This document shows positions 4,354-52,180 of a DNA stretch of 64,000 nt, one piece after another; within the stretch, counting starts at the first letter, position 1, and each line of letters begins with the position of its first letter. The position numbers were made by a program, and so were the translations under genes. This DNA is from Octopus vulgaris (Eukaryota): positions 8,308,001-8,372,000 of the forward strand of contig OX597825.1 in assembly GCA_951406725.2 (NCBI GenBank), read 5' to 3'. The notes under the pieces were generated by a model. The model saw only the letters and a list, made by a program, of their open reading frames with translations. It did no database searches and was not told where the DNA came from.

Positions 4354-4802
4354 TTCAGGTAGACATCAGTGTAAATAACTAGAATTGTTTGACAACTACT
4401 TAGCCACAGGTAATGTATTTCCATACGTGTTTTACGGTATGTGTGTGTGTGTGTGTGTGTTTTAAGAAATATATATGCGTGTTCGTATTTAGGATGAGTA
4501 ATCTAAAAATTGAATTATCAGGCATTTTCACATCTGATCAACGAATAACGCTAATATTTCTTGCGTGCACAAGTGGAATACAAAAGGAAACAAATAGATA
4601 TATAAAGAAGGTAAGACTTTCACACCATAATGAAATATGATCGTCAGTATAATGTCAGCCAGTTGACTGCACATGCGTCACAATTGATAAATCTTGCGTT
4701 CTCGCGGTGATTTTTGATGAACGAAGAGATGATATGATTTATCATGCGAGTTTCATGTATATGCGTATACGTGTGTATGCCCATAATGAGTAACAGGTGG
4801 TG

Positions 4803-8589: not shown

Positions 8590-8990
8590 TTCAAAAGCAT
8601 AAACACTGGCTAGGAATTAATAGATAAGTTAATGTATGTGTATAAGATGCCAAACATTAGCCCAATGTATCTATTACGGTTTCACTTGCTTATTGTTCCA
8701 AAACATCAATACAAACGTCACATCTCAAACATAATACGTCACATAACTATAGTTACGAAGTACACAAAAAAAGAAAAAAATACAGAAAACTCCTCCAAGC
8801 TGACATTGATACAACAAGTATTACGGAACTTTAAAACCATAAAACGTTTTTCAACGACATATTTAACATAATTTATTGGACTTAGTTGAATACACCTGCT
8901 GCGAAAGAGAAAATATTAATAACCTAAAAATAATCATCCTAGAACTGTAAACGTTTAGAGTAATTAAACCGACAGACGTCACTACCTAAC
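8590..8990 (+). mobile_element. Heavily decayed Penelope-like element, GIY-YIG-proximal region
   Basis: Scattered PLE-like motifs across frames: KMPNIS, NFKTIKRFSTTYL, AKEKILI...RTVNV. Confidence 0.3.
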
Positions 8991-9399
8991 AACTAATAAA
9001 TCATTCTTAAAGCTAAACAAAATGAAACATATTCACAATGAGCGAAGCGTAAGCTAACGGAATTAGACTCCATTTTAACTATGTGGCTTCAATCGACTTA
9101 AAACAACACAGCGTGGTAATGAACCAATACAAAGCCATATCTATTAAATATATACCTTTTGTTATTGAAAACAACTTTTAAAAAAATAATTCCATCTAAA
9201 AACAAACATATAAATAATATAAAATAGGCCAAATGACATAAATCGTAAAGAAAATACTCGCTAATATCATTAAAATTTGAAGACATAAAACAAACTAAAT
9301 GTAATCTAATGAAACAACGCAACAATATAAGCAAACGTTATCAATCTTGAATACAATTGTGGATGAAACCAATGTACACCTGTAAATATCAAATTATAG

Positions 9400-9452
<53 letters not shown>

Positions 9453-9789
9453 ATGTTTCCGCCTAAAGTTTTCACATATATATAGATGACGGAACAAATG
9501 TGTGGAAAACGCTGGGTACGGGTTATGTGTATGATTTAATAACAGCTTCAATCGGTTGCATATAACTTAGTTTCTTAGGCTTGTAAATTGATGCGAGTTC
9601 GTCAAGCATTTGAACATGAACCAACAGGAAGTGAAGCAAATTCTAGAGAACCTCCTCCAGATAATCGGCGAATATTGGTCAAAATAGATCACATTCGATA
9701 GCGACATCAAGTCTTATGTTTTTTCTCAGGTCCAAATGCTGAAACGACACATTAGTAGGCAGCTGTCGTTGCTATCTACGGAGGCTGAG

Positions 9790-9975
9790 GTATTGTTGTT
9801 TATTTAGCGGGTTCACTTCACTGAGTTTGCTGCTACACATACATGTCAGAGGGCGGGGGATGTCGCCTGTGACCGTTAAAGATAGACAGAATTCTTTGAA
9901 GATCTTCATCACATACTTCTTGAAATTGTCCACAGCGTGGACTTCCCTAGGATTGAGATTGCAAGGCCGTTGTGA
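9790..9975 (-). mobile_element. Penelope-like RT fragment
   Basis: DNFKKYVMKIFKEFCLSLTV resembles PLE RT (E/D)xxKKxLIKIFKExGLxIT. Confidence 0.4.
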
Positions 9976-10799
9976 AGCTACGGGCAGAGTTTTATGGGGC
10001 CACCCTTCCTTACATTGTCCAGGACAAATACCCCGACAAAACAAACATGACATACAGAAATTGTACGTCATATAAAAACAAACTAATAAACATGTGTTGC
10101 ATAGAGAGGTAAGAAAGCAATGCTTGTCTCTTCCCTTAATTGCTGTTTACAATCAGAAGACCGTTTGTAATCTAGGAGCAGAAATCCAGAATTACTCTCG
10201 TGTGGAAGTGATGACGTGTACGAGAATATACAATATACCCGAACACAGTATTACAAGGATATTAAATTTAAGGTTGATTTAAAGTAATCATTCTGTAGAT
10301 CGATACTAATTTAAAAACATGACGTTGCTCCAAATGTGTTCCAAATTTCATTGTCTCCCCAAGCTACAGTTAAAACACTTTAACAAACATTTTTCCTAAT
10401 GCAACTCTGTTTTTTCATATGCGTCGTTAAAATTTTTTCTTTACAATATTACACCCATCTTATTTATAGTCCCACCGTATAAAATAACTTGAATGTTAAA
10501 CATATTATGCCCAACTCTTAACGGAATATCATTAAGTGACCAGGACAACGATGCAATACAAATATAATGTTCTCAGATTTATTGCAAATGCCTGTCGCAA
10601 CCTTTTAACAGCACAGGCTTGCATAACATCTGAATAGTTAACCTAATTTACCGTCTCTTCCTTGCCACTTGCTTCGAGATCCTACGGATATATTTTCCTA
10701 AACATGTATTCTAAATAAAGTTGTCATTGATATCTCTGCAGCCACCACCATGTTGTGTGACTAAAATAATGTTTTTCCTTTGGTATAAATCATTAAGAC

Positions 10800-12330
10800 A
10801 ATCGTATTGATATGGCGATAAATATATATCTGCTAATGAAAGGATACACTTAACACCTACCGGAAAATGGTTAATTTATTTAAATATCCTCTCCGTTTAA
10901 GCGATATATGTTTTCTTAGGGATAAATCTTATCGTCTCTAATCTACTTTTATTTAAACAAATAAAACCTACACTAGAATAACAGAAAACCTAGATTAGGA
11001 TAAAAAAAAAACACAACCTTCGGCCTTATTTATGGAGATACATTACTAATATTGAACAGGATATCAATAAGTGTCTTCTACACTTTGCTAATAAAGATTA
11101 GTGTGCAGTGTACAGGAACGATACCTAAGTATAAAAACAATTAATTTAATCCTTTGGAGCGTCCATAAACCTTCATTACCAGAATGAATTGATATTCCTG
11201 AATAAGATAACAGCCGAATTATATAGGGAGTCCTTTGCGTTATATAATAAAATCTCATCTAAGAACATTTAACGCATCATAAATTAATATAGATAGTTGT
11301 TTACTTGTAAAGTTTCTTGCATCCACAATAAATCTGCATTTATACGGAATCTCAGGCAATTTTGGAAAACTCCCTCGAAAAAAAAATCAGTATAAATTTG
11401 TCATCTTCTACGCTGAATCCAGTCACATTTAACGCACCATAAATTAATATAGACAGTTGTTTACGCGCACACTTTGTTGCATCTGCAATAAATCTGCTTT
11501 TATACGGAATCTCATGCAAATTTAGAAAACCCCTCACTCGAAAACCAAAATCGGTATAAATTTGTCATCTTCTACGCTGCAGCCACTCATCTTTTCCACC
11601 TCTGGTATTAATTTCCCCAATAAAACATACATACTGTCAGATACTACTTTCTAAGTGCTATTAACTTTAAAGGTATAGTAGTCTCCTAATCCTAATTCAT
11701 TAGCTAATAACATTATTTAATGTTTTTTTTTTTACGAATTTTACGCATTTTCTTGAAATCTTACCTGTCGGTATTATGAAGTGGTTATTTTACATAGCAT
11801 TAATATACACTTTAACTTCCTGCTAACTACGGGCAGAGTTTTATGGGGCTGCCCTCTCCTATACTCTCCTAAACCCCTAGTTATCATTGTCATTCGCTTC
11901 AGCGACAAACTGGTAATGTTTTTCTCCAGTTCTGAAAATTCTTCTCTTGTACTTTCTATTTTAGATTTAACTACGAGATCACTAACTGATTTCCAGATTA
12001 CCTCCTCTAATTTGCACCTAGTTAATCAATCCGTATCACTGTGTGTATTCACTTTCCACATAAGCCAATTGAAATCTGCATTCAATATAATATTTACATC
12101 ACCTGTATAACCATATTGCGCCACAAGTGTACAAGTTTAATCGCATGTGCTGTAAAATGTATTAAGAGACAAATATTTTGTGCTCACCTTGTTTCATATG
12201 GAACTTACTTTATTGGATAGAAAGTGCAGATGGAATCCTTATGGAACCATTAATCAGGAATTGACTGAATGTAGTGTTTTGGTCCACATCTAGTGAATCC
12301 ACGATTGCGACTCGTGATCAGTCCGCTGAC
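10800..12330 (-). mobile_element. Decayed Penelope-like retroelement, RT N-terminal region
   Basis: Collinear motifs on the minus strand: GYTGDVNIILN (cf. HVITGDLNII), QEVKVYINAM.NNHFIIPTGK (cf. FVIVPADK), LLANELGLG, LNLHEIPYKSRFIADATKC.RKQLS (cf. PKLHKNPYKSRFIA), NSFW. Many stops and frameshifts; boundaries approximate. Confidence 0.75.
11265..11588. repeat. Diverged tandem duplication, 2 x ~160 bp, inside the PLE remnant
   Basis: acatttaacgca...tataaatttgtcatcttctacgctg begins at 11265 and again at 11425. Confidence 0.9.
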
Positions 12331-44420: not shown

Positions 44421-45044
44421 AAAAAAGTTTAAGAAGAAATAATATATTTAGCCTACACAAATCTGGTAAATATAAAAAAAAAGGCTTAAAGTTCGCGTCT
44501 CACCATAGTCATATGAACGACAAACAAAGATTGAATTTCAACGAAGTTAAGATAGATTTTAACATCAGCCAATTGTCATATATGTAGAGTATAGTAAAAC
44601 CTGAGCTATTTTATTCACGCACCAATCCGTTCTTTAATTCATGTATTCAGAAATAGATAAAACTATCTATGTCACTAGTAGCATTTCATTAAATATTGAA
44701 TATTACATATGTAATTAATGATCTATTTTATATGCACTTGAGGAAGCAAGTTCAATTGATATGTGACATCAATTATGTTCACATTTCCTATGCGAGGAAG
44801 CGGTAAAGTAGGTTTGTCAAATGTCGAGAACTCACTGTAATTACTTTGCCGTATTCTTGCAAACATGTATAGAAAGACAAAAGCCATCGAATCATTACTG
44901 AAGGCTACTAAATCGGTCAAATCGTTTCGTATACTTTCATTCCGGATGAATACGGTGTATAATAACTTTATAATCCTCCATCTGTAATACCCGGATTAAT
45001 ATAAGTACACGCACACACATATTTCTATACAACCACAAATATAT

Positions 45045-45397
<353 letters not shown>

Positions 45398-45724
45398 AGC
45401 AATAATAAATCTCTGAGCGAGGTATAAACAGTAGCTGCCCGACGATGTGAAGTATCTTTGCCAATTAAATGTGGCTAACCACTAAGGGTGGATACTACTG
45501 TAGCTTATAGCCCCAGGAGAACTTCTTCTCCAGCTGGCTATTGACACATGTTCTGTGCCCTATCAGTATTTGCAAAGGGAAGCCATCCTTCCCATCGTCG
45601 ACCTGACGTGATACGCACGGACGCGAGTTTCTGGGTATTTTACCCGTCGTCAGCGCACGACAATCACCCATCTTCGATGCGAATGGGTCCCGATGCAAAC
45701 ACATTATCCTTTTTCCAGTGACGA
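45398..45724 (-). mobile_element. Non-coding hammerhead-bearing element (retrozyme-like or PLE solo pseudo-LTR) inserted in (TA)n
   Basis: ~325-bp GC-richer, hairpin-rich island with TA-repeat sequence on both sides, containing the hammerhead motif. Confidence 0.65.
45608..45667 (-). ncRNA. Type I hammerhead ribozyme motif
   Basis: GUGAU-UGU-CGUGCG CUGACGA C-GGGUA-AAA-UACCC-A GAAA C-UCGC-G-UC / CGUGCG-U-AUCAC. Both core boxes, a GUC triplet, 5-bp stem II, minimal stem III and a 6+5-bp stem I with internal loop are present. Confidence 0.8.
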
Positions 45725-45939
45725 TATATACACACATATATATGCATATATATGTGCATATATACATATAACAATAAGGCAGTCGAAGTTCTCATTTTAC
45801 TGGACAATATCCCACAACGCTTTCGAGTTACCATACATATATGAATCCATGGAAGTAATCGACTGGAATGTTCCACAGAATCAGTACTCTCCATAGGTTA
45901 TATGTAAAAAAAAGAGAAATGAAGGAGGCAGAGTTTTAA

Positions 45940-50886: not shown

Positions 50887-51374
50887 GATACATAGAACAT
50901 GGGATATTGTAGAATGTCAAATATTTACATACATTATAGTTTATCCGGCATAACTAACTTCTACCGGGAAAATAAATATTATTCAATGTGTATGTAATGA
51001 TCTGAACGTTAATATTTCTCAAAAGTAATGGCACATTTAAAGTTGCAAACTAATTCACTCAAAGAAATTCCTGAAAAACGGCAAGAGATAAATATATCTT
51101 AAAGTAGGCCAGGAGGAGAGAATTTACTTAGATACATAGAACATGGGATATTGTAGAATGTCAAATATTTACATAGATTATAGTTTATCCGGCATAACTA
51201 ACTTCTACCGGGAAAATAAATATTATTCAATATGTATGTAATGATCTGAACGTTAATATTTCTCAAAAGTAATGGCACATTTATAGTTGCAAACTAATTC
51301 ACACAAAGAAATTCCTGAAAAACGGCAAGAGATAAATATATCTTAAAGTAGGCCAGGAGGAGAGAATTTACTCA
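50887..51374. repeat. Recent tandem duplication, 2 x 244 bp
   Basis: gatacatagaacatgggatattg begins at 50887 and 51131; about five substitutions between copies. Confidence 0.95.
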
Positions 51375-52180
51375 GATATATAACTACAAGGAAAGAAAAT
51401 TGATATCTATGAATGTGGATGTCTTCACATTTCACATATCCTTTTCTAAGCGATGGAACGAAATTTTTATATTATGCGAAAAAGACATGCGTGATGCCGG
51501 AAGGAAATAAAGTGAGAAAAATTTCTTTGTGAATGTTTTGAATCAATTATTTCGAAAATACTAATTTTTACCTAATTGGTAGTGATAAGTGGCGCTATAA
51601 ATTTTCGGATAAATTCCTGTGAGAATTCACAGTTTTGGGTAAATAGCTGTAAGAATTTGCAACTAACACAAGTCACTAAGAGAGGCAATGACCTGCCGTT
51701 TTGATTATAATGTCTTAAGTTATTTTACTTCTATTCTTAGCCATGATTACATTTCTATACATCTTATAATGGTTATAACCATCGCCCTCATTTTTACATA
51801 TTCTTATTTGCCCTGTCTCTTTATATGGCAATGCTACGTGTGTGCAAGTCCTTGTAGGTTTTGGAAGAAATTATTATTTTACTTACTACAAAATGATTCG
51901 AACGTCGGACACAACAGCCGACGGTATATGTCTCAGCTCATTACATTGTCAGTTCAAATACTACTGATTCAAATTTCGGGGTAAGCATAAAAGTACCCCA
52001 AAAGAACTAAGATCAATGAAGTTCACTGCCTCCCTCCCGTTATTATTTTCAAAATTTCTGACTTTGTGCCGACGTTAGAAACAAATTTCATTAATACAAT
52101 TATAATCGTTAAAGTGGCGAGCTGACAGAATCGTTAGTGCACCGGGCAAACCAGCAAACTAAGGTGGCAATAGTTTACTG

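Follow-up and report, generated by a model that had tools for sequence, protein, structure and literature searches.

Metazoan non-LTR retrozymes contain a type I hammerhead that has a short helix III with a palindromic loop, and they occur as monomers, dimers, and arrays (PMC7229834; 10.64898/2026.07.22.740005); in mussels, their non-coding unit is about 350–390 nt long (PMC7229834). PLEs have been proposed as the helpers of these retrozymes (PMC7229834; 10.64898/2026.07.22.740005), and the mobilization of animal retrozymes by PLEs has hitherto been argued from co-occurrence and repeat homology. EN+ PLEs are described as having two 3′ ends, a tail at one end only, an inverted truncated arm, AT-rich or (TA)n targets, and a hammerhead in the repeat (PMC8557442; PMC11167929). 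Purified PLE protein was shown to cut and extend both strands in vitro, and RT started at two internal RNA sites that bound a tail of 30–40 bp (PMC11167929). Our literature search returned no paper on such a family in octopus or cephalopods, which supplements or repeat databases could hold, and the available portion of the main text of a 2026 octopus repeat annotation (PMC13282606) contains no mention of ribozymes.

We analyzed a 64-kb stretch of octopus DNA (here called the window) in which the interval 45398..45724 had been predicted to be a retrozyme-like unit. This copy is very probably a truncated member of a protein-free 358-nt repeat, bearing a predicted hammerhead, that was inserted via target-primed reverse transcription by a PLE protein, and the genome-wide copies support its reading as a non-autonomous, TA-biased hammerhead retroelement with a PLE-type footprint. 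Elements of this kind are already known. Judged by its sequence, the family qualifies as a metazoan non-LTR retrozyme: within a non-coding unit whose 358 nt fall in the 150–450-nt range lies a type I hammerhead with a conserved core, copies are joined head to tail (the window copy itself is a sub-monomer), and the window copy contains neither a coding frame, an LTR, nor terminal inverted repeats. The marks of PLE mobilization are also present, namely two RT start sites (the tail), an inverted arm, 5′ truncation, and an AT-rich target. Unlike the described metazoan retrozymes, this family consists mostly of dispersed truncated arms of 0.2–2 units, with long arrays seen only in a sister family, and the window copy falls outside the definition of an active retrozyme as two units with complete hammerheads (10.64898/2026.07.22.740005). 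It also differs from EN+ PLEs in having no ORF and in its extended hammerhead, which is of the canonical metazoan type described in PMC4209133 and not of the minimal PLE type. Two other classes were considered and rejected: an autonomous PLE, since no RT plus GIY-YIG frame was found attached to the repeat in the loci read, and a MITE or tRNA-derived SINE, since the window copy has no terminal inverted repeats and the arms show no tRNA-like fixed 5′ head.

The window copy is single-armed and 5′-truncated, with its RNA sense on the minus strand, and it comprises unit positions 32–358 (327 of 358 nt). The boundaries originally drawn, with TA repeats on both sides, were correct: a (TA)n array of 359 bp (45039..45397), the likely insertion target, adjoins the 3′ end, and a degenerate TA stretch of about 41 bp (45724..45764), in which a target duplication is unresolvable, adjoins the truncated 5′ end. 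The absence of a credible ORF was also borne out, the longest stop-free frame being 75 aa (69 aa from an ATG) on the minus strand, and no terminal inverted repeats were detected in this copy apart from the TA flanks. The unit is longer than the ~325 bp first assigned to it, because in other copies the sequence runs 31 nt past 45724 before the same unit begins again, which gives a unit of 358 nt (46% GC). The window copy, carrying one predicted ribozyme and missing the first 31 nt of the unit, therefore cannot give rise to a unit-length circle, as had been envisaged for it. With 17 substitutions relative to the family majority, it is a decayed fragment and shows no sign of a host role.

Three hairpins had been noted in the element, and all were found at the positions given for them. 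The hairpin at 45507..45541 (minus strand) is kept in the family, and a subfamily exchanges its A-U pair 229:236 for G-C. In the GGGAAG/CUUCCC hairpin at 45577..45593 (minus strand), both arms are perfect in 69 of 123 pieces, and the sister family is predicted to have a paired counterpart. The ACCCAT/ATGGGT hairpin at 45666..45688 is present, with outer arms that are private to the window copy (1 of 101 pieces). Folding of the window copy was modestly better than that of shuffled sequences (z of −1.9 for the plus and −2.6 for the minus strand), and the majority unit of the family, when folded in circular form, gave a z of −5.7 against 40 shuffles.

A genome search with the window copy showed that the sequence is multicopy. 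It returned 3350 candidates, of which the 40 that were scored are near-full-length and spread over many contigs, the 39 other copies among them being 89–92% identical to the window copy; the window copy has no terminal inverted repeats that would tie it to a DNA transposon. An exact 20-mer near the 3′ part had 763 matches in the genome and a 20-mer in the hammerhead had 75, and the reversed controls had none. Given that the 3′-part 20-mer was retained in 39 of 136 sampled pieces (~29%), its 763 matches suggest a family of a few thousand pieces, by our estimate, in a genome of 2.8 Gb that is rich in TA repeats. Average divergence of the pieces from the majority is 5.8%, reaching 13.7% at CpG, and we therefore see no fresh burst.

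A hammerhead had been claimed for the element without a position. We found it on the minus strand with its core intact, as a predicted type I hammerhead at 45608..45667. Helix I starts at 45667 and consists of 6 bp, an internal loop, and 5 bp; the core sequence CUGACGA occupies 45653–45647, GAAA begins at 45631, and the predicted cut is after the C at 45620, between 45620 and 45619 (unit position 136/137). Helix III is formed by 2 bp inside the palindrome ACCCGGGU of the family majority, which is broken by two changes in the window copy. The base of helix II is a C-A mismatch (pair 10.1-11.1) in nine of ten aligned family rows; a mismatch at this place is also described for axolotl HHR_Amex2, which this hammerhead resembles (PMC7229834). 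A scan of both strands of the window detected one other, much poorer, hammerhead candidate at 4647. Rfam gave no match in the window at the gathering score and 32 weak matches at E≤10, with no hammerhead among them; because Rfam missed it, we base the assignment on core residues, helices, and the family comparison. The core is intact in 88 of 117 family pieces, and core positions are less variable than base-matched columns (2.6% vs 4.9%, P=0.03). When this family and its sister are taken together, 95% of the hammerhead cells are paired, and two-sided (compensatory) changes between the families were found at three columns in helices I and II, which, as a comparison of two lineages, represent a few events and not a statistical proof. 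Minimum-energy folds did not yield the active hammerhead core, and one of nine predicted retrozymes cleaved in vitro according to the preprint (10.64898/2026.07.22.740005). By their likeness to known retrozymes, the RNAs of this family may undergo self-cleavage and circularization.

The insertions themselves provided the main evidence for the mobilizing enzyme. From 180 loci we obtained 119 distinct insertions, for each of which either the two back-to-back arms or the single longest arm was counted (164 arms in all); most loci were chosen by similarity, so that the counts are biased toward long, young copies. The 3′ ends of the arms fall at unit positions 350–358 in 86 cases, at 300–315 in 57, and elsewhere in 21, defining two fixed 3′ ends about 45 nt apart, while the 5′ ends are scattered, with no fixed 5′ end among the 164 arms. 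Two arms stand back to back in 45 of the 119 insertions. Both ends lie at fixed sites in 28 of these 45, and 27 of the 28 use one of each (p=4e-8), the same one-of-each pairing being seen in 14 of 14 cases in two position-ordered pattern samples; at least one end is off the fixed sites in the other 17. In the window copy, the PLE-type tail between the two ends corresponds to 45398..45446 on the minus strand (unit ~310 at ~45446 and unit ~355–358 at ~45398). At ~45 nt it differs in length from the 30–40 bp described for PLEs (PMC11167929) and, by eye, ~32–36 in two autonomous families of this genome.

The search for shared ends and TA flanks across the genome thus uncovered two fixed 3′ ends and a TA bias at them. 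The TA flanks are not, as first supposed, a two-sided feature: across the family, TA repeats adjoin 69 of the 143 fixed 3′ ends but just 11 of the 67 truncated 5′ ends, the background being 7.7%. Where the flanks are non-microsatellite, 11 of 21 two-armed insertions have target duplications (shuffled mean, 0.6), as do 8 of 40 single-armed insertions (shuffled mean, 0.7); the clear ones are about 9–12 bp by eye, a few being low in complexity. This footprint closely matches that of PLE insertion, which is the main evidence that a PLE likely mobilized the family. The agreement of the insertion ends with the behavior of purified PLE protein in vitro (PMC11167929) provides two testable RT start sites on the 358-nt RNA. 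We propose that the PLE endonuclease nicks AT-rich DNA on both strands, and that each nick primes RT at one of two internal RNA sites, unit ~310 or ~355. On a head-to-tail template, which could be a ligated circle or a multimer that remained uncleaved, RT would then proceed toward the 5′ end and halt at variable points. The window copy would be one arm that was begun at the outer site, stopped after 327 nt, and has decayed since.

That the template was joined head to tail is indicated by the arms: 58 of 164 pass the unit junction and continue in the same unit, 107 of 164 span the predicted cut site, and 10 of 164 span it twice. A circle or an uncleaved multimer could therefore have served as the template. 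The longest arm of this family is 709 nt. Two natural partial-tandem sequences used as queries gave 4718 and 4315 candidates, and among the 40 scored for each, no array of at least three units was seen. The tandem arrays foreseen in the original prediction are accordingly represented here by arms of up to about two units, and arrays of three or more units were seen in the sister family only. Within one insertion, the sharing of rare differences is 12% for inverted pairs and 19% for direct pairs, a figure that one later duplication inflates, compared with 2.6% between loci. Subfamily blocks are mostly concordant within insertions, in 10 of 11 cases for 274/275 and in 3 of 3 for 85/116. However, block 229/232/236, which includes the A-U to G-C pair change, has different variants in three of five informative insertions, and block 291/292 is discordant in five of eight. 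In two of the three discordant 229/232/236 insertions (L066 and L073), the variants differ in successive passes of one arm. The discordant variants argue that one monomer circle alone cannot be the template, so the mixed-variant insertions constrain a simple one-circle model; such mixtures could arise from mixed multimers, by template switching, or through gene conversion at a later time, and the numbers are small.

These observations bear on an alternative with the same element and enzyme, in which a linear, uncleaved multimer is the template, the ribozyme of the older family is weak or idle, and no circle is formed. It agrees with the explanation favored here except at the circle step, and we regard it as a real possibility that falls somewhat short of an even chance. 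The C-A mismatch in helix II and the successive passes with different three-site variants in L066 and L073 would fit this alternative, and cleavage was unnecessary for PLE insertion in vitro (PMC11167929). Against it, the hammerhead core is conserved, and no long source array was found for the older family among the candidates scored with the tandem queries. The positions of some ends argue in the same direction, as 4 of 164 arms start at unit 137–138, next to the predicted cut, and one arm ends at unit 135, beside it, although other 5′ hot spots are equally strong.

Beside one copy of the 358-nt family, we found a young sister retrozyme family (L174:1784-3020; L217-L246) that forms two-armed tandem arrays. 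Its unit is 359–360 nt, its units are 98% identical to one another, and pure arrays extend to about 5.6 units. Identity between the sister and the 358-nt family is 61% overall, 75% in the hammerhead, and 87% in the last 40 columns, which lie in the tail. The sister hammerhead has a G-C pair at the base of helix II and a helix III that is two bases shorter, and, by our own reading, the same two 3′ ends occur in 8 of 10 two-armed sister insertions. This pair of an old and a young family shows which RNA features were kept, namely the hammerhead helices and the 3′ tail. We tentatively suggest, as a reading that is rather unlikely on present evidence, that a viroid-like lineage of 358–360 nt, evolving as an RNA under structural selection, left successive fossil waves (the older and the young family) and that PLE recombined its variants during insertion through template switching or mixed multimers. 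If this were true, the genome would document how a circular RNA parasite descended and recombined, and a transferable signal for PLE priming on two strands would reside in the 45-nt tail.

We then considered the source of the enzyme. The genome has several PLE families with RT plus a GIY-YIG at the C terminus, one of which has many open frames of 781 aa; this family, with intact frames, has its 3′ ends at (TA)n. In a GIY-YIG family search in which 150 of 6136 candidates were scored and 36 loci were read, the 358-nt unit was the terminal repeat of a PLE at none of the 36 loci, its one match being a separate insertion, and no autonomous partner for the 358-nt family was found among these loci. 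The tail aligned to the 3′ end of the 781-aa family no better than expected (29 of 300 shuffles were as good), and alignment of the tail to four PLE 3′ ends was likewise not significant. PLE protein fragments lie near four distinct insertions (six locus records) among the first 120 loci, and the four that were inspected were read as decayed, separate elements.

It is conceivable that the copies are instead the 5′-truncated ends (solo pseudo-LTRs) of an autonomous PLE that we missed. Such ends would have an identical signature, most PLE insertions are truncated, and the GIY-YIG search scored only 150 of its 6136 candidates. We nevertheless consider this very unlikely, in that 58 arms continue past unit position 1 into the same unit and not into an ORF, the PLE fragments are confined to four insertions among the first 120 loci and those inspected are decayed and separate, the sister family occurs in pure arrays of about 5.6 units, and the hammerhead is of the extended type instead of the minimal PLE type (PMC4209133). 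LINE-dependent SINEs, TA-targeting MITEs, and other DNA transposons can also display a TA bias and target duplications, and one of them might by chance carry a motif that looks like a hammerhead, but this explanation is already largely refuted by the lack of terminal inverted repeats in the window copy, the absence of a tRNA gene in three of three loci tested, the absent fixed 5′ end together with two alternative 3′ ends and head-to-tail continuation, and the compensatory hammerhead pairs across 61% identity.

Returning to the PLE reading, the original prediction had pointed to PLE relics at 8590-12330 in the window. The part at about 10400-12200 on the minus strand is indeed a decayed Naiad-type PLE RT, with an internal duplication near 11240-11530, but a helper role for it is unlikely. 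The 8590-12330 region had no match to C-terminal-endonuclease PLE proteins or Pfam, a homologue search with a 70-aa piece of the relic was empty, and 16 further weak matches to the relic were found in the genome. RT motifs are present in its genomic relatives, whose homologues in databases combine a GIY-YIG at the N terminus with DKA and CxC motifs, on which the Naiad assignment is based; the relic is thus placed only via its better-kept genomic relatives. Naiads are described as lacking canonical hammerheads and as long inactive remnants in cephalopods (PMC8557442), which makes the nearby relic an improbable helper. Better candidates are the intact C-terminal-endonuclease PLEs elsewhere in the genome.

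Some further features were observed in these PLEs and in the window. The 781-aa family (L141:606-5400 and relatives) also has a second, upstream frame of ~359 aa, and its terminal repeat contains a hammerhead-like UUGAUAA in place of CUGAUGA, which by eye would exchange C3-G8 for U-A. A second PLE family has a hammerhead-like core, CCGAAGA, in the 3′ UTR of some copies (L144 and L146), and CUGAAGA in L150. Two frames on the minus strand of the window (9775-10146 and 11777-12025) share the motif PHKTLPV and gave no clear Pfam match. Tandem repetition was encountered at three places. At L084:574-1424, a 50-bp piece that covers most of the hammerhead (unit 79–129) is now a minisatellite of more than ten copies at the 5′ end of the insertion. 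In the window, a 244-bp unit occurs twice in tandem at 50887-51382 (97% matches), and a 184-bp unit, which may resemble a common octopus short repeat, occurs five times in tandem at 116-1042 (94% matches).
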